Origin: Promethearchaeota archaeon
Lineage (GTDB): Archaea; Asgardarchaeota; Lokiarchaeia; Sigyniarchaeales; SOKP01
Direction: 5' to 3'
Length of the DNA stretch: 64,000 nt
Assembly: GCA_019058295.1 (NCBI GenBank)
Contig: JAHPZI010000021.1
Span: 32,001 to 96,000, forward strand
The number at the start of each line of letters is the position of its first letter. Position 1 is the first letter of the stretch. The translations under genes and the position numbers were made by a program. The notes under the pieces are model-generated. The model was not told the DNA's origin, searched no databases, and worked only from the letters and a program-made list of their open reading frames with translations. Shown piece by piece: positions 24,695 through 60,903 of the stretch.

Positions 24695-24722
24695 AGTTCA
24701 ATTTCAAAAATTATTTCAATGG

Positions 24723-24808
24723 TAAATCTTAAACATAACCATCATCACTAATATCTAATGCTCAATAATCTCAATGCATCGATTCCAAGTATAAGTTTAT
24801 ATATTTTA
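24723..24808. repeat. ~85-bp imperfect direct repeat, copy 2 (upstream of coiled-coil gene)
   Basis: Aligns with 19459..19543. Confidence 0.85.
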
Positions 24809-46142: not shown

Positions 46143-46850
46143 ATGATGAGAAGTAGAGAAGAAGAACACATAGAGGGAGGAGGTCGTATTCGTAGCATTA
46201 TCCTAGGATTAAATGATGGTTTAATTTCAACATTTACTCTTCTAGTTGGTATAGCAGCCGCCACTATTACAAAAGGAAATGCGATTGTATTATTGGCAGG
46301 TATTGCAGCTATGGTCTCAGGGGCAATATCGATGGGGTTAGGAGAATATGTTTCTTCAAAATCAGAGTATAATTATATTAAAAATGAGATGAAGAAAGAA
46401 GCCGCTGAAATCGAATTATTTCCAGATGAAGAAAAACTGGAAGTAAGAGAAATGTTTGAGAATATGGGATTAAAAGGAGATACTTTAAATTCATGTGTAG
46501 ACACGATAACTTCAAATAAAGAAACTTGGCTTAATTTCCTCTTAAAAAGTGAATTAGGATTGGAAGAACCCGAAAATCCCGCATTAGGAGCAATACTAAC
46601 TTTTTTTTCTTTTATTGGCGGTGCATTAATTCCGCTCTCACCATATTTCCTAAACTTAGGAATGATATCATTGATTATAAGTTCAATAATTTCTTTCTCT
46701 ATGCTTGCGATTGTGGGTTCGCTGAAAACAAAAATCACAGGTGAGACGAGGTGGAAAGGTGCTTTAGAAATGATAATTATTGGAACTATTGCTTTTATAT
46801 GTTCTTACTCAATTGGGTTATTGCTTGAGCAGTTCATAGCTGGCTTGTGA
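46143..46850 (+). CDS. VIT1/CCC1 family iron/manganese transporter
   Basis: Motifs ILGLNDGL and GAISMGLGEYVS. Confidence 0.93.
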   Translation: MMRSREEEHIEGGGRIRSIILGLNDGLISTFTLLVGIAAATITKGNAIVLLAGIAAMVSGAISMGLGEYVSSKSEYNYIKNEMKKEAAEIELFPDEEKLEVREMFENMGLKGDTLNSCVDTITSNKETWLNFLLKSELGLEEPENPALGAILTFFSFIGGALIPLSPYFLNLGMISLIISSIISFSMLAIVGSLKTKITGETRWKGALEMIIIGTIAFICSYSIGLLLEQFIAGL

Positions 46851-46856
46851 ATAAAT

Positions 46857-47426
46857 TCAATCAACTTTTTTGAAAAATTTTTGTTCATGATCACAATTAG
46901 GACAAGTTTTTGGAGCTTTTCTTAATTCAACATTTCCACAAATAGTGCATACATATATATCAATTGGTTCAATATTTTCCTTTTTGTCAAGTTTTTTTAG
47001 ATAAGCAATGTATAATTTACTATGAACTATTTCAGCTTTTCTTGCTAAATCAAATGAGAATTCTGCTAGATAAAGATCTCCTTTCTTAGCATCTTTTATA
47101 AAACTTTTATACATTTTTTTGAATTCAAAAGTCTCTCCTGCTATTGCTTGAATAAGGTTATTTCTTGTATCTTGAACTTGTTTTTTTAGCTCTTCTTCAT
47201 TGGTTTTAACGATTTCATTTGCATTAACTTCAGAATTGGTAATTTTTGCAATCGCTTGTATGTGATTTTTTATATGTATACTTTCTGCAGATGAGATCGC
47301 TCTAAATAAATGAGCAATTTCGGAATAATTCTCTTTTTCTGCTTGTTCAGCAAAGAGCTCGTATTTTATCTTAGCATTGGTTTCTCCGTTTATTGCTTCT
47401 TTTAAATTATCTATAATTAATGACAT
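46857..47426 (-). CDS. Rubrerythrin
   Basis: GE...ExxH di-iron motifs and a C-terminal CxxC...CPxC rubredoxin site. Confidence 0.93.
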   Translation of the reverse strand: MSLIIDNLKEAINGETNAKIKYELFAEQAEKENYSEIAHLFRAISSAESIHIKNHIQAIAKITNSEVNANEIVKTNEEELKKQVQDTRNNLIQAIAGETFEFKKMYKSFIKDAKKGDLYLAEFSFDLARKAEIVHSKLYIAYLKKLDKKENIEPIDIYVCTICGNVELRKAPKTCPNCDHEQKFFKKVD

Positions 47427-47589
47427 TTCAATCTAATCGAATTTTTTTTCTGAATTATATTAATTTCTTTTTCTTTTAAGAATTTATTACTATCCTAATA
47501 AAAATTCTTTCAGTGAAAAACCTATTCTTTATAAATAATAAATAAATAATAATATATAATATTCAAAATCAAGTAAACGGAAAAGAAAA

Positions 47590-47655
47590 ATGTTTAGAGA
47601 AAACTTAAAAGATCCTTCATCAGCTTGGTTTTGTTGTTGGCGTTGGCACGCATAG
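47590..47655 (+). CDS. Putative trp leader peptide 1 (MFRENLKDPSSAWFCCWRWHA*)
   Basis: 21-codon ORF with 3 Trp in the last 9 codons, directly upstream of trpD. Homologous to the leader upstream of trpE. Confidence 0.8.
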   Translation: MFRENLKDPSSAWFCCWRWHA

Positions 47656-47758
47656 AGCGTGCGCAATGGCTTTAATTATTTTTAGAATTTCTTGCTTTTT
47701 TCTCTTTATAATTCTTAAAATTTTATGTTTGAATTGTAAAGAATAAAGGGGTTTTCTA
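47638..47758 (+). promoter_or_regulatory. Putative attenuator RNA structure upstream of trpD (stop-codon hairpin plus U-rich second hairpin)
   Basis: GCACGC-ATAGA-GCGTGC hairpin at 47646..47662. 47703..47714 pairs with 47731..47742, with outer TAGAA/TTCTA pairing. Confidence 0.65.
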
Positions 47759-47808
47759 CAATATTAGAAATTCTAAATCTTAAAATTTTAATAAAAAAAA
47801 TAAAAAAA

Positions 47809-48873
47809 TTGAATAGGATGACAGAAGAAAAAATAGTTGATGGTTTGAAAAAAATAACTCAAAAAGTAAGCTTAACAAGTGAAGAAGCAGAAAATATAAT
47901 GAGAGAGATAATGTCTGGTAAGGTACAAGACGCTCAATTAGGAGCATTTTTAACAGGTTTAGCTATGAAAGGAGAATCTGTTGATGAAATCACAGGATTT
48001 GCTCTAATAATGAGAGAATTTGCAAATCAAATTGAACCTAATGTAGAAGGAGATTTATTAGATACTTGTGGAACTGGAGGAGATAAAATTAAAACATTCA
48101 ACATTAGTACAATTTCGGCCTTAGTTGTTGCAGGAGCTGGAATACCTGTTGCAAAACACGGAAATCGAGCTGTAACTGGTACATGTGGTAGTGCAGACTT
48201 ATTGGAGGGGTTAGGGGTGAAAATTGATTTACCTCCTGAAGAAGTTAAAACTTGTATTGAAAAAGTAGGTATTGGATTTATGTTTGCGCCTTTATTTCAT
48301 CCGGCGATGAAATATGCTATGCCTACTAGAAGGGCTTTAAAATTAAGAACTGTGTTTAATATACTTGGACCATTAACAAATCCTGCAAATGCCAAGTGTC
48401 ATGTATTAGGTGTATTTCAAAAAGATTTAACTCCTGTTATGGCCAAGGTACTAAATGGCTTAGGTGCAAAACATGTTTTTACAGTTCATAACTCATATGG
48501 TATTGATGAAGTAGCACCAGTAGGAATAAATTATATCACAGAAGTGAATAATGGAACAATTGAGAGTTATGCAATTACCAATGAAGATTTTGGTATTCCT
48601 GATTGTTCGATAAATGATATATTAGCGGGAAATTTAGAAGAAAATCTTAAAATCGCAGTCAATATCTTAAAAAATAAAGTTATCGATTCAAAATACAACA
48701 CTGTATTAATGAACGCAGCATTAGCTCTTAAAAGTGTAAATAAAGCAAGCGATATCAAAGAAGGAATTGAAATCGCTAAAAATGCTATTGAATCTGGAAG
48801 TGTTTTTGAAAAACTTAAACAATTTATCGAAGTATCTGGCGGAAATCAAGACAAGTTAATGAGTTTATTATAA
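47809..48873 (+). CDS. trpD: Anthranilate phosphoribosyltransferase (likely ATG start at 47818)
   Basis: Motifs DTCGTGGD, NIST, KHGNR and FNILGPLTNP. Confidence 0.97.
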   Translation: MNRMTEEKIVDGLKKITQKVSLTSEEAENIMREIMSGKVQDAQLGAFLTGLAMKGESVDEITGFALIMREFANQIEPNVEGDLLDTCGTGGDKIKTFNISTISALVVAGAGIPVAKHGNRAVTGTCGSADLLEGLGVKIDLPPEEVKTCIEKVGIGFMFAPLFHPAMKYAMPTRRALKLRTVFNILGPLTNPANAKCHVLGVFQKDLTPVMAKVLNGLGAKHVFTVHNSYGIDEVAPVGINYITEVNNGTIESYAITNEDFGIPDCSINDILAGNLEENLKIAVNILKNKVIDSKYNTVLMNAALALKSVNKASDIKEGIEIAKNAIESGSVFEKLKQFIEVSGGNQDKLMSLL

Positions 48874-48883
48874 AAGAAATAGC

Positions 48884-49702
48884 TTGAGATTAATGAGTTC
48901 GAATAAAATAAAAGAAATAGTGGAGCAACGGAAAAAATCTATTCAAAGAGATGTAGATTTCATGAGAGATTTAGGAAGTGAGATTATCAAAAAGAATCGG
49001 GGACCTTTAAGTGAGATTATTAAATATAATCAAGGGATTTCGATTATCTCAGAGATTAAACCAGCCTCTCCTACTTTAGGCGATATTAAAAAGAATATTA
49101 ATGTTAAGGCTATTGCTACAGAAATGGAAAGTGCAGGAGTAATTGGTTTAAGCGTTTTAACTGAACCAAATTATTTTAATGGTTCCTATGAGAATCTCAA
49201 GTTAGCAGTAGAAAGCACGAAATTGCCGTGTTTAATGAAAGATTTTGTTGTTGATGAGATCCAATATAAAATTGCTGCTCAAATAGGAGCAACTAATATT
49301 TTGATTATAAATTCAATTAGCAATTTGGAGGATTCATACCGCAAAGCTTTAGAATATAGCTTAGAACCTCTGATAGAAATCCATGATAGTGAAGAACTCA
49401 ATGATATTCGTCATTTATATGATATAGGTTTAAAGCCTGCATTAATCGGAGTGAATAATCGCAATTTGAAAACATTAAAAATTGATTTAAACACATCAAA
49501 AGTAATCATTCCGAAGTTGAAGGAAGAATTTGGAGATAAAATTCAAATTATTAGTGAAAGTGGAATAAATACAGAAGATGATATTAAGTTTTTACTTCAG
49601 TATAAAGCTAATGCATTTTTAATTGGTTCTTCAATAATGAAATCGAGTAATATAAGAGAAAAAATATTGTCATTAAGAGGTTTAATTAATAAAATAGGTT
49701 GA
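48884..49702 (+). CDS. trpC: Indole-3-glycerol-phosphate synthase
   Basis: Motifs EIKPASP, SVLTEP, KDF, GVNNRNL and SESGI. Confidence 0.95.
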   Translation: MRLMSSNKIKEIVEQRKKSIQRDVDFMRDLGSEIIKKNRGPLSEIIKYNQGISIISEIKPASPTLGDIKKNINVKAIATEMESAGVIGLSVLTEPNYFNGSYENLKLAVESTKLPCLMKDFVVDEIQYKIAAQIGATNILIINSISNLEDSYRKALEYSLEPLIEIHDSEELNDIRHLYDIGLKPALIGVNNRNLKTLKIDLNTSKVIIPKLKEEFGDKIQIISESGINTEDDIKFLLQYKANAFLIGSSIMKSSNIREKILSLRGLINKIG

Positions 49703-49706
49703 GAAA

Positions 49707-50018
49707 ATGGATTATAGAATAGATTTTGAGAAAATTAAATGGAAAGAACCTGCGATTGGTGTAAGATTTAAGTCTTTCATATCCAATAATAAACAAGTAC
49801 GCTTGGTTGAATTTACTGATGAATTTATAGAACCTGATTGGTGTACGAAAGGACATATAGGTTTTGTATTAGAAGGAGAATTAGAAATTAATTTTGATGG
49901 AAAGTTAGTTAAATATGGAGCGGATGATGGTATATTCATTCCTAAAGGACCAGAACATAAACACATGGCAAAATGCATAACTAAAACAGTAAAATTAATC
50001 TTAATAGAAGAAATTTAA
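49707..50018 (+). CDS. Cupin-fold protein (DHCW-cupin-like)
   Basis: WCTKGHIGFVLEGEL...HKH. Confidence 0.8.
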   Translation: MDYRIDFEKIKWKEPAIGVRFKSFISNNKQVRLVEFTDEFIEPDWCTKGHIGFVLEGELEINFDGKLVKYGADDGIFIPKGPEHKHMAKCITKTVKLILIEEI

Positions 50019-50031
50019 AGGTGAAATATAA

Positions 50032-50679
50032 ATGGAGTACATAAAAATATGTGGCTTAAAAGAAATCGAACACATTGAATTATGTAGGGATAATGATGCT
50101 AATGCCGTAGGTTTCATATACAATGTTCCTAGTTCTCCAAGAAATTTGGAAAAATCCAAATTAATGAATCTTTTAAAAGACATTCCTAAGAAATTATTAA
50201 CTGTAATTGTATTTAAACCCCAAAATATCTTAGAATTAGAAAGAGTAATAAATGAAATAGATGTTGATTTATATCAGATTCATAGTAATTTTGAAAATCT
50301 AGAAATGGAAGAAATTCAACCTGAATTGAAAAAAAAGATTATTTTAGCATTACAAGTAAATTCTTCCAATAAAGATGATGTAATTTATAAAATTAATAAA
50401 TATTATGACCAATTTTTTGGTTTTTTAATTGATAATAGTGAAGGTCATGGTACAGAATTTAATTTCAATATCGTTGCAGATATTATAAATAATACCAAAG
50501 GAGCGAGTATAATAGTTGCTGGAGGTATTGATAGTAACAATATTGAAAAGATAATTAGAGATTTAAACCCTTATGGAATTGATATAAGTAGTTCATTAGA
50601 ATCCGAAAAGGGGGTTAAAGATCCATTAAGAATTGAAAATTTTTTAAAAAAAGTAAATGAAATTAAGAAAACATTATGA
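50032..50679 (+). CDS. trpF: Phosphoribosylanthranilate isomerase
   Basis: Motifs IKICG, SPR, QIH, AGG and DISSSLE...KD. Confidence 0.93.
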   Translation: MEYIKICGLKEIEHIELCRDNDANAVGFIYNVPSSPRNLEKSKLMNLLKDIPKKLLTVIVFKPQNILELERVINEIDVDLYQIHSNFENLEMEEIQPELKKKIILALQVNSSNKDDVIYKINKYYDQFFGFLIDNSEGHGTEFNFNIVADIINNTKGASIIVAGGIDSNNIEKIIRDLNPYGIDISSSLESEKGVKDPLRIENFLKKVNEIKKTL

Positions 50680-50688
50680 GGGATAAAA

Positions 50689-51891
50689 ATGAAATATAGT
50701 GGGAGATATCCTAATAAGTGCGGTAAATTTGGGGATTTTGGAGGTATTTTTGCTCCAGAGGTTCTCATGCCAGCACTTAATGAGCTTACTGAAGCTTTTG
50801 AAAAATATAGAAATGATGAAAGTTTCAAAAAAGAGTTTTATCAGATACTCGAATCATATGGGGGTCGTCCAACACCTTTATTTTATGCTAAAAGATTAAG
50901 TGAAGATGTAGGATGCAAAGTATATTTGAAAAGAGAAGATTTACTTCATGGTGGAGCTCACAAATTAAACAATGTAATAGGACAGGCATTATTAGCCAAG
51001 AAAATGGGAAAAACAAAGCTTGTAGCAGAAACAGGTGCAGGGCAACATGGATTTGCTACTGCTATTGCTGGAGCTTATTTCGGCATGGAAACAAAGGTAT
51101 TCATGGGAGAAGTTGATATCGCCAGACAAGCATACAATGTATATCGCATGCAATTACTTGGAGCTGAAGTAATACCTGTAAAAATTGGTTCGAAAACATT
51201 AAAGGATGCGATTAATGATGGACTTAGATATTGGATCACCAATGTGAGAGATACTCACTACTTAATGGGAAGCGTTGTCGGTCCACATCCATATCCGCTA
51301 TTAGTGAGAGAATTCCAAAGAGTTATTGGAATTGAAACTAAAAAGCAAATAATGGAGTTAGAGGGTAGATTACCTAATGCAATCATCGCTTGTATTGGTG
51401 GTGGAAGTAATGCTATAGGAATAATGTATGATTTCATTGAAGATGAGAATGTCCAGTTAATTGGAGTTGAGGCTGCTGGAGAAGGATTAGAAACAGGAAA
51501 ACATTCAATAGCATTAGGGTTAGGTCGAAGAGGAGTATTACATGGATCCTTAATGTATCTATTACAAAATGAATATGGTAATATACTAAAGACACATTCT
51601 ATAAGTGCAGGACTAGATTATCCTGGTGTTGGCCCCGAACATTGTTTTTTAAAAGAATTAACAAGGCTTAGAGTAGAAACTGCAACAGATAATGAGACTT
51701 TAGCGTCTTTTCAAAAATTATCCGTTATAGAAGGAATTATTCCTGCATTGGAGTCATCACATGCACTTGCGTGCCTGGAAAAAATTAAGGGTGAGTTTAA
51801 TAAAGATGACATTGTAATAATTAATTTATCTGGTTCAGGTTCTAAAGATCTAAATATAATCAAACAGCGTATGGAGTTTAAAGTAAAATGA
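50689..51891 (+). CDS. trpB: Tryptophan synthase beta subunit (TrpB1 type)
   Basis: Motifs [24 protein letters not shown] and [11 protein letters not shown]. Confidence 0.97.
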
Positions 51892-52718
51892 ATCATACAA
51901 ATAGAATCTTGGACCTTTTTAATGATAAGAATGCATTAGAGGAAAAATATTTTATGCCCTTTCTAGTTTGTGGAGATCCTTCGATTGAACAGTTTATCTC
52001 AATGATTGAAAAAATCGATCCTTATATAGATATCCTTGAGTTAGGCATTCCTTTTAGCGACCCAATTGCTGATGGTCCTACCGTTCAAGAGGCAAATATG
52101 AGAGCATTCGAGGCAGGCATCAATACAAAAGTCGCGCTCGATACAATTAAGAAAATCAGGACATTTTTCCAAAAACCGATTGTTATTTTAACTTATTACA
52201 ACATTTTAATTCAAGGATCAGAGACAATAGAAAGTTCATTGGATAATACATTGAGAAGATTCAAGGAAAGTGGGATAGACGGAATTGTTATCGCCGATCT
52301 TCCAATTGAAGAAGCAGGTTTAGCGTTAAAATATTGTAAAAAACATAATATATCCCTTATATTTTTAATTGCTCCTACAACTACAGATGATAGATTAGAA
52401 AAAATCTTGAAAGAAGCAAGAGGATTTGTCTATTTAATATCTATATTGGGTGTTACCGGTGCTCGGGAAAAAATCGCTCAAATCACGAAAGAAACGATTA
52501 AAAGAGTAAAAAGTAAAATCAAAACCAAAATTCCAATTTTCTTGGGATTCGGTATATCTACACCGGAACATGCATCCACTCTAGTTGAATTAGGAGCCGA
52601 TGGAATTATCATTGGCTCGGCAATGATAGATGTTATTAAGAGAAATCTAAGCGATTTCACCAAAATGGAAAAAGAACTTGTGGAATTTGTATCAAGTATA
52701 AATAATGCGATTAAGTGA
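51888..52718 (+). CDS. trpA: Tryptophan synthase alpha subunit
   Basis: Motifs [18 protein letters not shown] and GFGIS. Confidence 0.97.
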
Positions 52719-52728
52719 TTAAATTAAA

Positions 52729-53913
52729 ATGTCAAATAATATACTAAAAGTCGGTGTGATTGGGTGTGGAATTATTGCAAAAATAGGACACTTACCATGG
52801 TATAATCATTCAAAAGAGGCAAATATAGTCGCTTTAGCAGATCCCGATGAGAAGAAGCTTAAAAAAGCAGGAAAATTATATAATGTAGAGAAATTATATA
52901 CTGATCCAAATGATCTTATTGATGATCCTGAAATTGATGCTGTTAGTATTTGTTCACCTCATTGGGCTCATGCTCAACAAACAGTAAGAGCTGCTGATAA
53001 CGGAAAACATATTATTTGTGAGAAGCCTATTGGGACCGACTTAAATCAGATTGATGAGATGATTAAGGCTGTTGAGAAAAATCAGGTAATTTTCCAAACT
53101 GCTACACAAAAAAGATTTAGTCCAGGGTTCCAAATGATAAAAGAAGATCTATTAGAAGGAAAACTCGGTGATGTATTCCATGCGTCTATTTATTGGTATC
53201 ATTTCATACCTGACTTAGATATTCCATGGATAAGAAAATCTCTGGATTTTTTAAAGAAATTGGGTATTGATATAGAAAAAAATATGGGTGCATGGAGATT
53301 AACAGATGAAAGAGCAGGAGGGGGCGACTTAATGGATCATGTTCCTCACTATTATGATTTATTTAGATTTTGGTTTGGTGATGTCGCTACAGTAAGCGCT
53401 CAAGTGAGAAGAGTCTATAAAAGCAGAGCTCATGAGGATCATGGCGCAATGCTTTTTTCATTTAAAAATTGTGAAACAATTGCTGTTTTTGAAAGATCTC
53501 AGAATATAACTGGACGAGTAAAAGGTGAAGAATTAGGACGAATTCACGGCACGAAGGGTTCATATTACTTTGATGTGCCACATGAATATAACTTAGAACC
53601 AATGGAAATTAAAAAATTCATGTTCTCTTTAAAGAATTATATCGTGAATCGAAAGAAAAAGATAAAAATCAAGTATCCAAAAGATAAATGGAACCTTAGT
53701 TATGCTAGAGAAATTCGGAGTTTTATAAACCAATGTCTGGGAAAATCAAATGAGGATGTTGGATTTCCAGAAGAATGGATCCCAACAATCTATGATGGTA
53801 GGGCTGCTTTAGAAGGAGTCCTAGCGACTTATGAATCGTCTCGAACAAATCAAACTATCCATTTACCATTAAAAAGTTATTCTCCAATCAATTGGAAAAA
53901 TACAGTGGAGTGA
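52729..53913 (+). CDS. Gfo/Idh/MocA family oxidoreductase
   Basis: Motifs GCGIIA, CEKP and GGGDLMDHVPH. Confidence 0.92.
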   Translation: MSNNILKVGVIGCGIIAKIGHLPWYNHSKEANIVALADPDEKKLKKAGKLYNVEKLYTDPNDLIDDPEIDAVSICSPHWAHAQQTVRAADNGKHIICEKPIGTDLNQIDEMIKAVEKNQVIFQTATQKRFSPGFQMIKEDLLEGKLGDVFHASIYWYHFIPDLDIPWIRKSLDFLKKLGIDIEKNMGAWRLTDERAGGGDLMDHVPHYYDLFRFWFGDVATVSAQVRRVYKSRAHEDHGAMLFSFKNCETIAVFERSQNITGRVKGEELGRIHGTKGSYYFDVPHEYNLEPMEIKKFMFSLKNYIVNRKKKIKIKYPKDKWNLSYAREIRSFINQCLGKSNEDVGFPEEWIPTIYDGRAALEGVLATYESSRTNQTIHLPLKSYSPINWKNTVE

Positions 53914-53925
53914 TTTATTAAAAAT

Positions 53926-54438
53926 ATGATTGATTATGGTCATACTTGCTTATTGATCTTTGCTCAAGGTACTTGGAAAGAAAACTATAGAATGAGATTT
54001 TTAAAGAAAATTAAAGCTAAGTTTATTACTTCAATGAAAATAGATGACATTGATCTCTGGGGCGAGAATGAGCAGATTCCTTTATTTGATCCTAATCATC
54101 CAGAAGCAAATGATAATCCCTGTGAATTATGTGATCCTTTATCTGAGATTTTTTTAAAAAAGAAAGGACAGAACGATGGTTTTATTCTTTTCTCACATAA
54201 CGTTCTTGGATGGGATGGAATGAAAGATTTTTTTCTATATATTTTAGGAGAATCAAATGTGAAAAAGATATATTACTTAGAATTGGATGGATTTTCTTAC
54301 TTAGTTAGTACAAAGGATAGGATTCCCGAAATCCTAAATGCTTTAAAAGAGAAGAAAGTCAATAGATCTACTTTCTTTGATCTATTTGAAAAAGAAAAGA
54401 TAGAATTTAGTATAATATATGAAATTTTAAAATATTAA
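53926..54438 (+). CDS. Hypothetical protein
   Basis: 170-aa ORF 12 nt downstream of the oxidoreductase. Confidence 0.7.
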   Translation: MIDYGHTCLLIFAQGTWKENYRMRFLKKIKAKFITSMKIDDIDLWGENEQIPLFDPNHPEANDNPCELCDPLSEIFLKKKGQNDGFILFSHNVLGWDGMKDFFLYILGESNVKKIYYLELDGFSYLVSTKDRIPEILNALKEKKVNRSTFFDLFEKEKIEFSIIYEILKY

Positions 54439-54478
54439 GTTTATATTTGCGAAATATAAGAAAAGAAGAGGAATAGAA

Positions 54479-55378
54479 TTAGAAATCATTAATTTTAATG
54501 TTGTTTTCCCTAAATAAGGATTTAATTTTTCTTTTTGTATCAATTGTAAGCCATTCAGAATAGTTGTATTCAGTTTCCAATCCAATTTTTTCTGATTTTG
54601 AAAGCCAAAGCGGATTGTAAGGTAATAACCAGACCTTATCTATGTTTAAAGATTTGAAATATTGTATCCAACTCCTTAGATTTTCTTCCTTTAAGGTAAT
54701 TTCTGGAATCAGAGGTATTCTCGGTAAGAGTTCTATACTTTCATTTTTTATTAAGTATTCAAAATTGCTTAAAATTAATTGATTAGGGACTTTACAATAT
54801 TTTTCATGTATATTTGAATCATATATTTTTAAATCGAAGTAAATGAGATCTAAAAAGGGTAACACTAATTCTATAAATTTCTCATTATTATAATAACCAC
54901 TTGTTTCAATGCATATATGAATTCCATACGTTTTCAGTTCTTTCAACAAAGCATTTAAATATTCCATATGAAACGTAGGCTCTCCCCCAGATAATGTAAC
55001 TCCTCCCCCTGTATTATCATAAAATACTTTATCCCTCAATATTAATTCGGCTAATTCTTTAATATCATATTCCTTACCTACATATTTATAAGCTTGATTA
55101 GGACAAACTTCTATACATTTACCACATAAATCGCAAATATCTCTATCAATTCTATATTGATTAGAGAAGTTGATTGCTCCTTTTTTACAATGACTCATGC
55201 AAATCGTGCATTCACTACAATCTTCTTTAGTGAATGATAGCTCTTGATCAGCTTTCTTAGTTTCAGGATTTTGGCACCATACGCATGAAAGAGGACAACC
55301 CTTAAAAAAAATTAAGGTTCTAATCCCAGGGCCATCATCTAATGCATTTCTTCTAATATCTACGATTAAGGTTTTCAT
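54479..55378 (-). CDS. Glycyl-radical enzyme activating protein (radical SAM with ferredoxin insert)
   Basis: Motifs DGPGIRT, GCPLSCVWCQNPE, two ferredoxin-type Cys clusters and SGGEP. Confidence 0.95.
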   Translation of the reverse strand: MKTLIVDIRRNALDDGPGIRTLIFFKGCPLSCVWCQNPETKKADQELSFTKEDCSECTICMSHCKKGAINFSNQYRIDRDICDLCGKCIEVCPNQAYKYVGKEYDIKELAELILRDKVFYDNTGGGVTLSGGEPTFHMEYLNALLKELKTYGIHICIETSGYYNNEKFIELVLPFLDLIYFDLKIYDSNIHEKYCKVPNQLILSNFEYLIKNESIELLPRIPLIPEITLKEENLRSWIQYFKSLNIDKVWLLPYNPLWLSKSEKIGLETEYNYSEWLTIDTKRKIKSLFRENNIKINDF

Positions 55379-55421
55379 TTTAAATAAAAATTAATTGAGA
55401 AATCATCGCTTTTAAAGAAAA

Positions 55422-58388
55422 TTATCTTGCGTTGAATTCAGTTCTTTCTATAAGTTCTATTTGCATATTTTTATTTATTTTTGTGAAGTAGGCATTATAT
55501 CCAGATATCCTTACTAATAACCAATGGTAATTTTCTGGATGGACCATTGCGTCTCTTAACATATCAGAGGTTACTATGTTAAATTGCCATTGCATTCCTC
55601 CTAAATCGATAAAACTCTGCACGTATCCTGTAAAAAGATCTAATGTTTCTCCATGAGAGTCTCCTGGATGGGGCACCAATTTAACGTTATATGAAGCATT
55701 ATTTGGCATCTTTAAATGGTCTAAACTTGCGATTGTACGTATATTCTGAAGCAAAAGATCAGAGCTTCCTGGAGCAGGAGTTAAACCGGGTGTTAATGCC
55801 TTTCCTTTCTTTCTGCCAGAGGGCAGAGCGCCTGTAAGCATTCCATAACCCACATGATATGATATAGACCAGTATCCAACAAGATAAGTACCCCCTCTGT
55901 AATTCTTTTCGGATTTGTATAAATCATAACAATAATCTAATAAATCATCAGCAATATCTTTAGTTCCAGGTTCATCGGATCCAAATTTAGGAACTTTTTG
56001 GATTTTATTAAGTAATTCTGCAGAACCATTCTCAAAATTATCTTTTAAAGCATATAATAAGGTTGAATAATTTATTTCCTTTTTATTATATATCAGATCT
56101 TTTATTACTAATAGACTATCAACAGCATCCGTAAGAGACACTAATGCTACTCCAGACGTATTATAAACAGCACCACCTTGTACGAGATCTTTCCCCTTTT
56201 CTAAAGGACCGTCATAAAACGCAGATAAAAATGGAGTAGGTTTGATATATTGATGACTTTCACCTAAATAGTTATTAATTTCAATTGATTGATCAATTAA
56301 ATATTTCAATTGTGTTTTATAGGCACTATAGAAATCCTCAAATTTTGGAAAATTGTCTAGATCAGGGAAACCTGTTTCGGGTCCCACTTGTACTCCAATT
56401 AAAGGGTGAATGCCATTATTTAATGCCATTTCAAGCGGAGCAACCATATTTAGAAGCATTGCATTAGTATGACCGAAATGCTTTCCTACAACAGTTGGTT
56501 CTACACAACCAGTAGCAGCCCAATCTCTCGCATCTTCTAAAGCAAATCCTTCATTAACAAGAGCTTCAATCATTGCTTTATCATTATGTATTGAAGGGCT
56601 GGAAACCATATTTATATTAACCTCTGTTAGGCGTCTTAGATATTCTTTAGAATTTATACCAGAATAATATCTTGCATTCATATTGGGATCCTGAAAACAC
56701 AACATTTCATTTGTTTTTAAAATAATGAATGTCATATCATTAACCGCATTATTACCATTACGATCTACACCACCAATTGTAACCGTATCATCTGAGGAAC
56801 TACCACCAAATAATTTATTTCCTATAGAAGGAATCAATGGATCATGGTCATTGATTCTTAAGATTAAGTTTCCTACAAGCTCAATGGATTTATTGATTAT
56901 TTTCTCTTTTTCCTCATCGTTCGATGTTTTTTCCATTTCAGATAAGAAATATGGCTGCAGCATTTGATCTAATCTTCCTATACTCATTGCAGAATTAGGA
57001 TTCTCGCAATGAATGCAAGTAAAGCACGTCCAAATTGACTGAACTGCTTCTTGTAAGGTTTCTGCTGGTTTAGCAGGTACTTTAGCACATATTCTTGAAA
57101 TTTCTTTCAATTCATCTATTCGTAGGGCTTGCTCAGGATCATTTGAATCTAAGCTTTCAGCAATTCGCAAGGCTTCCTCGCTCAAATGGTTAGCATAAGC
57201 TAAAGCCCCATTAATAGCAGTTTGAATTGCTTTGTAGAAATTTTTCTTTTCATCTGAAGTGGCCTCCGATTCCATTTTTACTGCTTTGTTTCTTATGCTT
57301 TCTAACCCTTCATTTAGTATCTTCGGAAAACCAGGAACTGTATGTGAAATGGCATTATTCTTCATCATAAAGTAGAAGACCCATCTTTCCTCGATCCATA
57401 ACGATTTAGGGTTATGCTTGTTAACGCGACAATGCTCTCGAACATTTCTTTCCATCCAGTAAGGAAACACTTCTTGGCTTAATATATCTGCATCTTTAGG
57501 GGCAATATCGTTAGGATTAAGCTCGCGAACACCTAATGATTGTAATTCCGGCCAAGCAGCAGTACCAATCAATTCAGGATAAATTGGAATCCCTACTTCT
57601 TTTGATGTAGTGGAACCTGCGATAAGGAATTGACCATGAATTATAGGTTTTTTATTTGACATTATGTAATTTACTGCCCCCGCGTTTCGTAGTTCTGGAT
57701 CAAATGGATTCCCAGATTTATCAGTTTCATAACCATTTTCTAAATGATACTCTGTCAACAATTTTGCTCGTTCAACGCAAATTGCAGGTTTTAATGCCCT
57801 TCTTCGACTTTTAAGATACTTTAAACGTGGAAAGTCATTAATAGAATAATTTGCTAAATAAGGATCCTTTAAATAATGCACGTTATCAATTTTCCGATTT
57901 AGTGCGTCACTTTTAAGCTTTCTATTTTCTTCACCTTTTTCAATTTCTTCAATCGAATGTATTAAACGGTTTTCGGGACCTTTATAACCCTTAATTTTAG
58001 CACCCGTGGCGAGTGTAGTAAGATATGAGAATTTAGTAAGATATGCCATATTACCTTCAAAAGACATTGAATTATCTAAAAGATATTCGAGTGTTTCATC
58101 TGCAGATTTATCCCAAGTTTCTGCTAGAGTCGCCTTATCTTTATAGATTATTTTTATGTTTGGATCATCAACTATCCCTTCTTCGGCAGTTATTTTTCCA
58201 TTATCAAAGATTAATTTTAAATTAAATCCACCATCACGAGTTGTAAATTGATATTTGGCATTAAAAATGAATCCTGTCTTCTCGTTATAAATTTCCTTTC
58301 GCAATCTTCTGCGTGTAAAAACTATATCTAAAAGTCCAAGAGTTTCTTTAAATTTCTCTAATGATTCATTAATTTCAGCTTCATTCAT
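55422..58388 (-). CDS. Glycyl radical enzyme (non-PFL, GCVE type) with N-terminal SCP2-like domain
   Basis: Motifs GCVEP, VRISGY and SIGRLDQ. The N-terminal ~130 aa has an SCP2-like pattern (G..DDPNIKI...LLDNSMSFEGNM). Confidence 0.9.
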   Translation of the reverse strand: MNEAEINESLEKFKETLGLLDIVFTRRRLRKEIYNEKTGFIFNAKYQFTTRDGGFNLKLIFDNGKITAEEGIVDDPNIKIIYKDKATLAETWDKSADETLEYLLDNSMSFEGNMAYLTKFSYLTTLATGAKIKGYKGPENRLIHSIEEIEKGEENRKLKSDALNRKIDNVHYLKDPYLANYSINDFPRLKYLKSRRRALKPAICVERAKLLTEYHLENGYETDKSGNPFDPELRNAGAVNYIMSNKKPIIHGQFLIAGSTTSKEVGIPIYPELIGTAAWPELQSLGVRELNPNDIAPKDADILSQEVFPYWMERNVREHCRVNKHNPKSLWIEERWVFYFMMKNNAISHTVPGFPKILNEGLESIRNKAVKMESEATSDEKKNFYKAIQTAINGALAYANHLSEEALRIAESLDSNDPEQALRIDELKEISRICAKVPAKPAETLQEAVQSIWTCFTCIHCENPNSAMSIGRLDQMLQPYFLSEMEKTSNDEEKEKIINKSIELVGNLILRINDHDPLIPSIGNKLFGGSSSDDTVTIGGVDRNGNNAVNDMTFIILKTNEMLCFQDPNMNARYYSGINSKEYLRRLTEVNINMVSSPSIHNDKAMIEALVNEGFALEDARDWAATGCVEPTVVGKHFGHTNAMLLNMVAPLEMALNNGIHPLIGVQVGPETGFPDLDNFPKFEDFYSAYKTQLKYLIDQSIEINNYLGESHQYIKPTPFLSAFYDGPLEKGKDLVQGGAVYNTSGVALVSLTDAVDSLLVIKDLIYNKKEINYSTLLYALKDNFENGSAELLNKIQKVPKFGSDEPGTKDIADDLLDYCYDLYKSEKNYRGGTYLVGYWSISYHVGYGMLTGALPSGRKKGKALTPGLTPAPGSSDLLLQNIRTIASLDHLKMPNNASYNVKLVPHPGDSHGETLDLFTGYVQSFIDLGGMQWQFNIVTSDMLRDAMVHPENYHWLLVRISGYNAYFTKINKNMQIELIERTEFNAR

Positions 58389-58592
58389 TTTAATATTCCC
58401 CTAGTCTTAGAAATCTCGAATTTTTTTATTATTAATTGTTTTTAGTTATCCTAATTTTTAAATATCATCATTCTATTTAACAAGCTTCGTTTTAAATATT
58501 AGAATAAAAGATTAATAATTGGATAAAAAAAATATAAATACAACCTAAACCTTATTCTATTAAAAAACCTCAAAACAAGTTGTTTACTAAGT

Positions 58593-58664
58593 ATGAATAA
58601 TATGAAAAATAGTGTTGATTTTCAAGAACCAACTTGGTTTTGGGACTGGCGTTGGCACGCATAG
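58593..58664 (+). CDS. Putative trp leader peptide 2 (MNNMKNSVDFQEPTWFWDWRWHA*)
   Basis: 23-codon ORF (alternative ATG at 58602) with 4 Trp in the last 9 codons, directly upstream of trpE. Confidence 0.8.
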   Translation: MNNMKNSVDFQEPTWFWDWRWHA

Positions 58665-58735
58665 AACGTGCGCAATGGCTTAACTTATTTTAGGATTTCT
58701 TTTCTTATAACGCATATAAAGAATAAGGGATTCTA
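58647..58735 (+). promoter_or_regulatory. Putative attenuator RNA structure upstream of trpE
   Basis: GCACG-CATAGAA-CGTGC hairpin. Second hairpin at 58691..58735 (TAGGATTTCTT...AAGGGATTCTA). Confidence 0.65.
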
Positions 58736-58810
58736 ATTCAAATTTTAATTATTAAGTTTTTTATTCAATAAAATAAATGATAAAAGAAATAGAAAAATAG
58801 TGGAATTGTA

Positions 58811-60304
58811 ATGGAATTTGATATTCATATTGAAAAAATTGGAGAATTGGATGATATATTTGGGTTTTATAAATATTTAGTGAAACGTTATGATTTGAAA
58901 AAACATGCTTTATTAGAGTCCGCTTCAGAAAATACAAAAGAAACCTTATATAGTTTTATTGCAATGCAACCGGATTTCATGCTTGAAATTAATGAGGATA
59001 AGTTTAAAATATATGATATCTCTACTGCCCGAGGGGAAAGAATTAAAGAATACGTAGAATCTAGAGATCCTGCCGTGGAAAGACCGCATAATCCCTTGCC
59101 ATTTAAAGATAATGTCGAATATAATATGGTTGCGCTCGATACTTTGAGCCATCTCACACCTTATTCTAATCTTCCTTTCACAGAATTATTCCCAAGGAAC
59201 ATCTTTTACGGCGGGATGCTTGGGTATATAGGGTATGACGTAGTTGCTCCTTATGTGGGTTATAAATCTACAAGCGAATTTCCAGATATTTTAATGGGGC
59301 TCTATACAAAAGCATTGGTCTATTCACATAAATCAAATGCATTATTCATGATTGATAATAGCATTAATGATTATTCAAAAGATAAAGATATCCGATATCA
59401 ACTCAGCTTATTTAATAGAAATCATAATTCAGATGAAGTTGGAGAAATATCCTTGGATATTGAAGAGGTGGATGAATCTCATTTCAGATCCAACACAAGC
59501 AAGAGTGCTCATGAAAGAATGGTAGAAAAGACAAAAGAATACATTTATGATGGAGATATTATACAAGCAGTTATCTCCCGAAGGCTCTATACAGAGACAA
59601 AAATAGATCCTATGGCAATTTATGAGGTTCTAAGAGTTCTTAATCCATCGCAATATATGTACAATATAAATTTTGGTAATATTCGCATCATTGGGAGTAG
59701 TCCAGAAGCACTTATCTCAAAAAATAAAGATATTCTTAATACTGTGCCAATTGCCGGAACCATAAGAAGAGGCAAAACTCCAGAAGAAGATACAAAATTA
59801 GAAAAGGAATTGTTAGAGGACCCAAAGGAAAAGGCTGAACATATCATGCTTGTGGATTTAGCACGCAACGACCTCGCAAAAGTTTCATATCCAGGTTCTG
59901 TTGATACATTTGAACTCATGACAGTTCAAAAATATCAAAAAGTTCAACATATTGTTAGTAAAGTGAGAAGTAAGACACCTCTTGATGGGTATCAAGTTCT
60001 AAAAAGCGTATTCCCAGCAGGTACTCTTTCAGGAGCACCTAAAAAGCGTGCTATGGAAATAATACAAGAATTAGAAACAGAATCGAGAGGACCTTATGGG
60101 GGTGGTGTCGGCTATTTCTCATTTAATGGAGATATGGCGTTTGCCATTGCGATTAGGACACTTTTTGGGATGAATGGTACATATTTTGCTCAAGCAGGAG
60201 GCGGGATTGTCGCAGATAGCCAACCACATGAAGAGTACACAGAGACCTACAATAAGTTATATAGTGTTATAAAATCGATAAAAATTGCGGAGGCAAGAAA
60301 ATAA
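58811..60304 (+). CDS. trpE: Anthranilate synthase component I
   Basis: Motifs LLES, NPSQYM, SSPE, PIAGT, EHIMLVDLARND and PAGTLSGAPK. Confidence 0.95.
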   Translation: MEFDIHIEKIGELDDIFGFYKYLVKRYDLKKHALLESASENTKETLYSFIAMQPDFMLEINEDKFKIYDISTARGERIKEYVESRDPAVERPHNPLPFKDNVEYNMVALDTLSHLTPYSNLPFTELFPRNIFYGGMLGYIGYDVVAPYVGYKSTSEFPDILMGLYTKALVYSHKSNALFMIDNSINDYSKDKDIRYQLSLFNRNHNSDEVGEISLDIEEVDESHFRSNTSKSAHERMVEKTKEYIYDGDIIQAVISRRLYTETKIDPMAIYEVLRVLNPSQYMYNINFGNIRIIGSSPEALISKNKDILNTVPIAGTIRRGKTPEEDTKLEKELLEDPKEKAEHIMLVDLARNDLAKVSYPGSVDTFELMTVQKYQKVQHIVSKVRSKTPLDGYQVLKSVFPAGTLSGAPKKRAMEIIQELETESRGPYGGGVGYFSFNGDMAFAIAIRTLFGMNGTYFAQAGGGIVADSQPHEEYTETYNKLYSVIKSIKIAEARK

Positions 60305-60903
60305 TGAAAATCCTATTTATTAACAATTATGATAGTTTTGTTTATAATTTGGTCAATTATATCTGTCAATTAGAACCCAACGGCCAAATTATTATCGAGG
60401 ATAACCATATTGCGGTGGACAAGATTAAAGAAATGAATGTTGATAAAATAATTATTTCACCAGGACCTGGACATCCTAAGTATGACACGGGCACAGTAAT
60501 TCCCATCATTAAAGAATTTTATTCCAAAATACCAATATTAGGAATTTGCCTAGGGCATCAAGCTATTGTCGAAGCTTTCGGCGAAGATGAGAATATGGAA
60601 TATGTGGGCAGAGCTAAAGTAGGGCCCATGCACGGCAAGGAATCTAAAGTCTTTCACGACCAAGAAACAATTCTTAAGGACATCCCTAATCCACTCCAAG
60701 TAATTAGATATCACTCACTTTCCGCAAAATCCGATATTTTACCCCAAAACCTTAAAATTAGTGCGACTGCGGATGATGGCACAATCATGGGGGTTAGGCA
60801 TAAACAATATCCTATAGAAGGGGTCCAATTCCATCCCGAGTCGATAAAAATGAAACCTTATGGAATACAATTATTAAAAAATTTCTTAGAATTAAAAATA
60901 TAA
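60304..60903 (+). CDS. trpG: Anthranilate synthase component II (glutamine amidotransferase)
   Basis: Motifs NYDSF, SPGPG, GICLGHQ, RYHSL and QFHPES. TAATG stop/start overlap with trpE. Confidence 0.95.
   Translation: MKILFINNYDSFVYNLVNYICQLEPNGQIIIEDNHIAVDKIKEMNVDKIIISPGPGHPKYDTGTVIPIIKEFYSKIPILGICLGHQAIVEAFGEDENMEYVGRAKVGPMHGKESKVFHDQETILKDIPNPLQVIRYHSLSAKSDILPQNLKISATADDGTIMGVRHKQYPIEGVQFHPESIKMKPYGIQLLKNFLELKI

Follow-up and report, generated by a model that had tools for sequence, protein, structure and literature searches.

How does an archaeon match the expression of its tryptophan (Trp) genes to the supply of Trp, and could the ribosome itself take the reading? The question is raised by a short open reading frame (ORF) with a Trp-rich end that lies upstream of trpD in the stretch of DNA analysed here (the window: 64,000 nucleotides (nt) of contig JAHPZI010000021.1, positions 32,001 to 96,000, from the Promethearchaeota genome assembly GCA_019058295.1). 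Textbooks treat leader-peptide attenuation as a bacterial mechanism, and among 8.4 million full texts searched for leader-peptide attenuation and trp control we found only bacterial work, none of it describing an archaeal case. Here, we report that both trp units of the window begin with a structured leader of about 230 nt which, judged from comparative sequence analysis, probably (with a probability of roughly 0.7) acts in cis to sense charged tRNA-Trp, with the translating ribosome as the reader. The more general statement, i.e., that a Trp sensor read by the ribosome controls the trp genes in cis, appears highly probable on the same grounds. All coordinates are those of the window, and all features are on the + strand unless noted otherwise.

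The trpD leader ORF (MFRENLKDPSSAWFCCWRWHA; 47590..47655) was read from the sequence and has homologues in relatives; it runs from an ATG at 47590 to a TAG at 47653-47655, and three of its 21 residues are Trp (codons at 47626, 47638, and 47644). A preliminary description of this locus had pointed to the unannotated ORF about 160 nt upstream of a trpDC-cupin-FBA operon. The ORF is indeed present as it described, the distance from the leader stop to the trpD ATG (47818) is 162 nt, and Pfam assigns the operon (47818..52718) as trpD, trpC, cupin, trpF, trpB (also by NCBIfam), and trpA, "FBA" being trpF-trpB-trpA. Upstream of the leader, a rubrerythrin gene (Pfam) is located on the opposite strand, which places the leader ORF in a divergent intergenic region. 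The contig carrying the window holds two TFB (TFIIB) genes and the nearest TrpD loci are those of Promethearchaeota (Asgard) metagenome assemblies, both indicating that the element is archaeal. The genome (G000) is 79% complete, has a G+C content of 31%, and contains one tRNA-Trp(CCA) gene.

A DNA search of the same genome located a second copy of the leader at 58630-58701 with 86% identity. Its ORF (MNNMKNSVDFQEPTWFWDWRWHA; 58593..58664; 23 codons, four of them Trp) ends 146 nt before the trpE-trpG pair (58811..60903; Pfam). The identity of 86% extends from the first Trp codon through the 5' arm of a long hairpin (P2), and the two leaders share a TATAAATA box, a helix near the 5' end (P0), the Trp codons, a hairpin around the stop (P1), and both arms of P2. 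The codons before the first Trp are unrelated between the two leaders and the in-frame ATG is kept in both; the last ten codons of the two ORFs hold three or four Trp codons. A separate trpE leader was found only in G000, G005, and G007, where trpEG and trpA are parted by other genes; elsewhere, trpE follows trpD on the same strand at a distance of 3-4 kb and has no separate leader. This confinement to genomes with a split trpEG indicates that the leader was copied when the operon split, which is the behavior one would expect of a cis-acting control element. In G006, trpE is only 3.5 kb past the end of trpD.

Trp makes up 1.1% of the residues in long ORFs of this genome, and 41 of its 35,394 short ORFs carry at least three Trp in their last 12 codons; the trpE leader is the only one of the 35,394 with four. 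If the search is restricted to intergenic DNA, six Trp-rich short ORFs are left, two being the trp leaders. Two of the other four are followed by unrelated genes, and no gene lies within 500 nt of the remaining two, i.e., only the two leaders precede Trp genes. When the whole genome was scanned for leader ORFs enriched in another amino acid (His, Met, Ile, Val, Leu, and others), no convincing case emerged: the candidates precede genes for a carbamoyl-phosphate synthase small chain, a JAB protease, a metallo-beta-lactamase, an NTP-transferase, and a proteasome subunit, and were treated as chance. The mini-ORF MVNLKHNHHH (24719-24751), 87 nt before a 136-residue ORF without a Pfam match, is probably chance as well and is unlinked to his genes.

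The leader is not a peculiarity of one genome. In trpD loci taken from 18 genomes of the same genus, family, and order (protein identity 44-95%), a short ORF with a Trp-rich end is located on the trpD strand in all 17 relatives whose DNA upstream of trpD is readable. These ORFs are 14-35 codons long, end 130-280 nt before the next ORF, and close with, for example, ..TWFWVWCWHA, ..FRWQWLWRA, ..FWSWQWPWRWQ, ..IAWSWRR, or ..WTIWAWRL directly before the stop. As a control, 80 loci from a wider search (22 Asgard and 58 non-Asgard trpD loci) were scanned with a cut-off of at least three Trp in the last 12 codons, which was passed by 15 of the 22 Asgard loci and by none of the 58 others. Across the phylum, Trp-rich ORFs were found upstream of trpD in four further Asgard families; a leader ending in ..LWRSWWWI precedes trpD in family f33, and a closed 6.0-Mb genome of the same order (G171) carries MCTTTMSSGKIVDISLSLDNKAWPWHKL about 320 nt upstream of trpD. 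No Trp-rich ORF was found upstream of trpD in other families of the phylum, perhaps since trpD is not the first gene of their operons.

What these regions conserve is a reading frame. Within the 45 nt before the leader stop, TGG occurs 95 times in the ORF frame and six times in the other two frames together, a comparison that is partly circular since the frame was picked by its Trp count. TGG spacings of 3, 6, and 12 nt are all present (adjacent Trp codons included), and none breaks the frame. An in-frame ATG is found 14-35 codons upstream in 27 of 29 leaders despite the frequent stop codons in such AT-rich DNA, and the stop follows the last Trp codon by 0-4 codons; the upstream codons are not conserved. 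The preliminary description had reasoned that conservation of the palindrome without frame or Trp codons would point to a protein operator; the homologous upstream regions keep both frame and Trp codons, not the palindrome alone.

The strongest single argument that the element responds to Trp is the set of genes it marks. A profile was built from 21 leaders; the covariance model came out without base pairs, i.e., it is a sequence-only profile. It matches 108 of 135 family genomes, at roughly 150 sites altogether, including genera where trpD was not found. Among 20 sampled matches away from trpD and trpE, the gene that follows is trpB2 in 15 (NCBIfam NF009057 and TIGR01415, above cut-off), trpA in two, and a GNAT-methyltransferase fusion in two, with no ORF in the last one. 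All 19 sampled matches with an ORF have a Trp-rich leader ORF, some with five or six Trp in 18 codons (e.g., MATVNNWAWRWQWPWRWR). As recognized by this profile, the element marks four kinds of Trp-synthesis gene, trpD, trpE, trpB2, and trpA.

Several observations accompany this distribution. The fusion of a GNAT acetyltransferase with a methyltransferase (385 residues; L194:1235-2389 (-) in G004 and L209:1184-2338 (-) in G191) has its own Trp leader of the type found in this window (..FFISWFWVLHWHA); in G191 the fusion gene shares the strand of the trpD leader and follows it at about 7.5 kb. The enzyme may act on Trp or a Trp derivative. Trp synthesis is patchy, with trpD in 65 of 400 sampled Asgard genomes and in five of ten genomes of this genus (G000 counted). 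Many genomes without trpD retain a leader-controlled trpB2, which suggests indole salvage. In several relatives a conserved ORF of 75-99 codons (..LINK....GPEK..TAKFIAENY.DVY..), without a Pfam match, lies between leader and trpD (L008:1236-1490, L009:1248-1487, L010:2556-2780 (-), L058:400-696, L059:428-697, and L063:439-687).

Two types of leader can be distinguished: type A, that of this window, ends in ..WRWHA, and type B ends in ..WQWPWRW plus one more residue and is found upstream of trpD in other genera and of trpB2. The 261-nt trpD leader folds at z = -3.3 relative to shuffled sequences. P1 is common to type A, type B, and the distant families. In the trpD leader (47641..47668), GCACGC (47646-47651) pairs with GCGTGC (47657-47662) around the loop ATAGA, which holds the TAG, and the helix is lengthened by CGTTG (47641-47645) and CAATG (47664-47668) over one bulged G; the last Trp codon is in the 5' arm. 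Folding bears out the preliminary description on this hairpin, its extension, and the position of the stop. P1 of the trpE leader (58650..58677) also has the stop codon in its loop. The arms change in step between lineages (GCACGC/GCGUGC, GCGCG/CGCGC, GCGCC/GGCGC, GGCGUU/AACGCU, GGUGGA/UCCACC): P1 arms from the same leader pair at -11.5 kcal/mol versus -9.2 kcal/mol for arms swapped between leaders, a difference matched by none of 20,000 permutations, although related leader sequences are not independent and P values for the helices overstate the case. The stop codon is in an apical loop in 21 of 36 leaders versus 20% of shuffles. Minimum-free-energy z-scores of 63-nt windows around the stop are modest (mean -0.94), and folding energy alone is therefore weak evidence.

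P0 ties the 5' untranslated region (5' UTR) to the beginning of the Trp codons. In the trpD leader, CAAAAUCAAGU (47564..47574) pairs with GCUUGGUUUUG (47623..47633), which includes the first Trp codon (duplex z = -2.65); in the trpE leader, 58569..58585 pairs with 58626..58644, which covers the first two Trp codons (58635 and 58641; z = -4.0). The duplex has z from -2.6 to -7.2 in eight of ten type-A leaders, with partner sequences that vary by lineage (CAAAAUCAAGU/GCUUGGUUUUG, CAAAACAAGUUG/CAACUUGGUUUUG, CAGAUCAAAUUA../..UAAUUUGGAUUUG). Type-B leaders have a clamp helix that joins the 5' UTR to a segment past P1, with pairs varying among A-U, G-U, and G-C. Ten of its 15 pairs are changed on both sides, its covariation score is 0.230 versus 0.157 in shuffles (matched by 0 of 500), and 83% of its cells are paired versus 32-52% when the partners are slid. 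P0 and the clamp both end 5-14 nt before the leader ATG. Please note that P0, P1, and P2 were tested by duplex energies and the clamp by a structure given by hand, since the arms were out of register in the alignment; from MAFFT alignments, RNAalifold retrieved nothing beyond the P1 core in type A and nothing beyond P1 in the wide type-B set.

P2 is a long hairpin past P1. The preliminary description had drawn it at 47683..47758; the hairpin is real and larger than that (47681..47777), with an outer helix UUUAGAAUUUCU/AGAAAUUCUAAA (47681-47692 with 47766-47777) around inner stems at about 47695-47714 and 47731-47751. Its counterpart in the trpE leader (58690..58736) has 17 bp including three G-U pairs. 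The outer helix (UUAGAAUUUCU/AGAAAUUCUAA) is present in all 12 type-A leaders examined; it comprises 8-18 bp, of which up to four are G-U pairs, and its loop measures about 20-75 nt. Such G-U pairs work only in the RNA of the + strand, which argues that P2 is not a DNA palindrome. Type-B leaders have two further helices, P3 and P4, that show compensatory changes. The P3 hairpin (GUGCUUUAU..UUGAUUUCCAA..UAAGGUUACAC; columns 214-254 of alignment A3, e.g., L008:979-1269) contains a CACAU for which there are two possible partners, an AUGUG upstream of it and another downstream (P4); about 40 nt ahead of the structural gene, this choice of partner may serve as a switch.

The promoter seemingly sits just upstream of these helices. 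A TATA-like box is found at 47528..47537 for the trpD leader transcript (TTTATAAATA), with an expected start near 47558-47562, and at 58533..58540 for the trpE leader transcript, which shares the box. In all six trpD and trpE leaders of the genus, about 35 nt separate TATAAATA from the P0 5' arm downstream of it, and in the type-B relatives a ATATAAATA box is equally far upstream of the clamp arm. Given this conserved position, and with archaeal promoters spaced as usual, transcription would be expected to begin a few nt ahead of the first helix arm. No box was found at a conserved, fixed distance from the trpD ATG.

How might such a leader sense Trp? Every Trp codon sits in a helix arm, so that a waiting ribosome would open P0 and/or P1. 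When a ribosome footprint of 30 nt is masked on the Trp codons or on the stop, in-silico folding melts P0 and/or P1 in both copies. With ample Trp, the first ribosome would reach the stop and leave, and P0 and P1 would re-form, P0 thereby shutting the start region of the leader itself, so that a single ribosome reads it. The ends of P0 and the clamp near the leader ATG point the same way: they would block later ribosomes, which fits a one-time decision made during transcription. With scarce Trp, a ribosome held on the Trp codons would keep P0 and/or P1 open. Past P1, at a distance of 11-33 nt, the trpD leader has a U-rich stretch (47679..47701) with tracts of U5 (47679-47683) and U6 (47696-47701) that are candidate archaeal termination signals; U4 to U8 runs are found at the same place in other type-A leaders, and the U6 tract read between P2 and trpE (58757..58762) may have the same function. 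These tracts would emerge as P1 can close. A folded P1 just upstream of them would favor premature termination by the archaeal polymerase, and a stalled ribosome, which prevents closure, would be the antiterminator that lets transcription run into trpD or trpE; in the read-through transcripts P2 would fold over the U-rich stretch. Archaeal polymerases terminate at oligo-U without a hairpin, and the role of P1 in termination is thus our inference. Termination as the output is a tentative proposal, somewhat short of an even chance. The full form of it, an Asgard transcription attenuator unlike the bacterial one, in which the stalled ribosome opens the P1 that a eukaryote-like polymerase or FttA/aCPSF1 needs for a stop at the U tract and in which P0 or the clamp limits sensing to the first ribosome, is as a whole less likely than not.

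A number of points weigh against the sensor or against termination as its output. All genomes compared are metagenome assemblies, and the comparison rests on sequence. Masked-footprint folding gave no alternative (antiterminator) pairing and left P2 unchanged in both copies, and terminator scans found no bacterial-type hairpin-plus-U-run site in either leader. P1 would likewise stay open under a ribosome that waits at the stop, and the termination model therefore needs fast release of the ribosome while the polymerase pauses. The GC-rich relatives have no clear U tract past P1, the closest relatives have only two Trp codons, and two relatives (L077 and L021) look translational, with an anti-Shine-Dalgarno (SD) sequence next to the leader stop in L077 and an SD in a local hairpin in L021; the output may differ between lineages. 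An internal promoter before trpD is conceivable, the DNA there being very AT-rich, and SD motifs are rare in G000, with GGAGG before about 3% of long ORFs. The attenuation idea of the preliminary description consequently stands in part: a Trp-codon leader is conserved, duplicated, and placed before trpD, trpE, trpB2, and trpA, whereas the switch between hairpins lacks support in the form proposed, masking having given no alternative pairing. A scheme of alternative hairpins (1:2, 2:3, 3:4) was set aside, as masking gave no new conserved pairing, and a predicted 7-bp helix between the freed 5' end and the sequence preceding the trpD ATG was dropped since it is conserved neither in G007 nor in G006.

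Among the competing explanations, the one that survives best keeps Trp sensing by stalling and moves the output to translation initiation of the first structural gene, or to mRNA stability or processing; we consider it unlikely. In L077 (Borrarchaeum-type, 601-705) a UCCUC placed 4 nt past the leader stop pairs with the trpD SD, GAGGA, 49 nt downstream, and in L021 the trpD SD AAGGAGGG lies in a hairpin with CCCUCCUU, with a second SD-like GGAGGG box upstream. The lack of a bacterial-type terminator and the GC-rich relatives without U tracts past P1 would also suit a translational output. In this window, neither trpD nor trpE has an SD, and their start codons are not linked to the leader by any conserved pairing; sequestration of these start codons was looked for directly, and no conserved complement was found. 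P0 and the clamp look built for one round of leader translation, which suits a single transcriptional decision, and the U5 to U8 runs keep a fixed place past P1 in type-A leaders.

A protein that binds the element, with the ORF incidental, would explain other features, and we regard it as quite improbable. The protein could be a Trp-activated RNA-binder on UGG repeats or a DNA repressor on P1 and on P2 palindromes resembling AGAAnTTCT. Many UGG codons do recur with a period of 6 nt (UGGCNN), resembling a repeat-binding site, the 3' arm of P2 is by itself a 13-nt palindrome (TTAGAAATTCTAA) with both P2 arms strongly conserved, and the masked folding found no switch in the RNA that would serve as output. 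Yet the TGG spacing is always a multiple of three, with the frame bias given above (95 versus 6), and 27 of 29 leaders keep an in-frame ATG and a nearby stop, neither of which is needed by a TRAP-like repeat-binder. The helices tolerate G-U pairs, which DNA would count as mismatches, one arm changes along with the other, and the length of the P2 loop ranges from about 20 to 75 nt; two palindromic DNA operators at P2 are less likely given the G-U pairs, the lineage-specific extensions of the helix, and the variable spacing. The elements moreover are located past the TATA box and do not overlap it, and a search of the genome for TRAP and TrpR genes found neither.

The remaining idea, a chance ORF in a structured non-coding RNA (e.g., a T-box-like tRNA sensor) or a small peptide acting in trans, could draw on UGG triplets and a conserved UGGC/UGGU past P1 that could pair with the tRNA-Trp anticodon and NCCA end, and on the conserved C-terminal motif W-R-W-H-A or W-x-W-R, and is nonetheless very improbable, since no T-box or other Rfam match was found up to E = 10, frame, start, and stop are kept across five gene contexts, the peptide N-termini are unconserved and the C-terminal residues coincide with helix arms, and the element without exception accompanies a Trp-synthesis gene, in cis and on its strand.

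The surroundings of the two trp units can be described briefly. A cupin gene of 103 residues (49707-50018) is located between trpC and trpF within the trp operon. About 6 kb (52729-58388) separate trpA from the trpE leader; this region encodes a GFO/IDH/MocA oxidoreductase and a 170-residue ORF without a Pfam match and, on the opposite strand, a radical-SAM activase and a glycyl-radical enzyme of 988 residues.

A ribosome-read Trp sensor in these leaders would be a known kind of control, in a form of its own, in a domain of life where we have not found it described. The leaders define a regulon of Trp-synthesis genes (trpDCFBA, trpEG, trpB2, and trpA) across many Asgard lineages, with an RNA architecture of its own. 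If confirmed, archaea would sense amino-acid supply through the speed of the ribosome, the sister group of eukaryotes would use a functional coupling of transcription and translation for regulation, and archaeal termination would be open to regulation by RNA structure and ribosome position. For annotation, the rule that a Trp-rich mini-ORF marks Trp genes follows, and it flags the GNAT-methyltransferase fusion as a candidate Trp-linked enzyme.

How does the element relate to systems already known? A search of 46800-48200 against Rfam at E up to 10 gave nothing relevant, neither RF00513 (Trp_leader) nor a T-box; RF00513 run on the whole genome had no match, and the E. coli positive control was detected. 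TRAP (TrpBP, PF02081; B. subtilis control detected) and TrpR (PF01371) have no match in the 79%-complete genome, and TrpY was not searched for. The statement of the preliminary description that no trp regulator is recognized accordingly extends, for TRAP and TrpR, from the window to the genome, and leaves TrpY aside. To our knowledge, TrpY of Methanothermobacter, a repressor, is the one characterized case of archaeal trp control. TrpY and Bacillus TRAP resemble the present case in that trp genes are under Trp-dependent control, and they are protein-based, whereas here in-frame codons and RNA helices would do the work; the (G/U)AG repeats of TRAP-type sites are not the pattern, the repeats here being UGG and in frame.

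The closest likeness is to trpL of E. coli and Salmonella (RF00513). In both, Trp-synthesis genes are preceded, on their own strand, by a short ORF in which Trp codons cluster; Trp codons are in a helix, the stop is near structure, and U-rich sequence follows. The differences are several: the present leader belongs to an archaeal host and does not match RF00513, and neither a 2:3 antiterminator nor a hairpin-plus-U-run terminator was found; the stop is in the loop of a hairpin, the 5' end of the transcript is joined to the first Trp codon by an additional helix, codons for Trp come in alternation (W-x-W-x-W) where those of trpL are tandem, and this leader family serves up to five separate gene sets. 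Another likeness is to the pyrBI leader and to translational attenuation of the erm/cat type, bacterial systems in which the ribosome itself masks a hairpin and which sense UTP or antibiotics, not an amino acid. Their output is a bacterial terminator or a masked SD, and the window was found to have neither; as in the geometry of P1, the leader ORF overlaps a hairpin and the position of the ribosome decides whether it forms. According to a preprint on mycobacteria (bioRxiv 10.1101/834739), unannotated, leaderless short ORFs encoding polycysteine stand first in their operons as Cys sensors; they share with the Trp leaders a short ORF rich in one amino acid, placed first in the operon as a sensor, and differ in being bacterial, in sensing Cys, and in being leaderless. 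Taken with these comparisons, the element would work like a leader-peptide attenuator and, by its sequence and architecture, is not a member of the trpL family.

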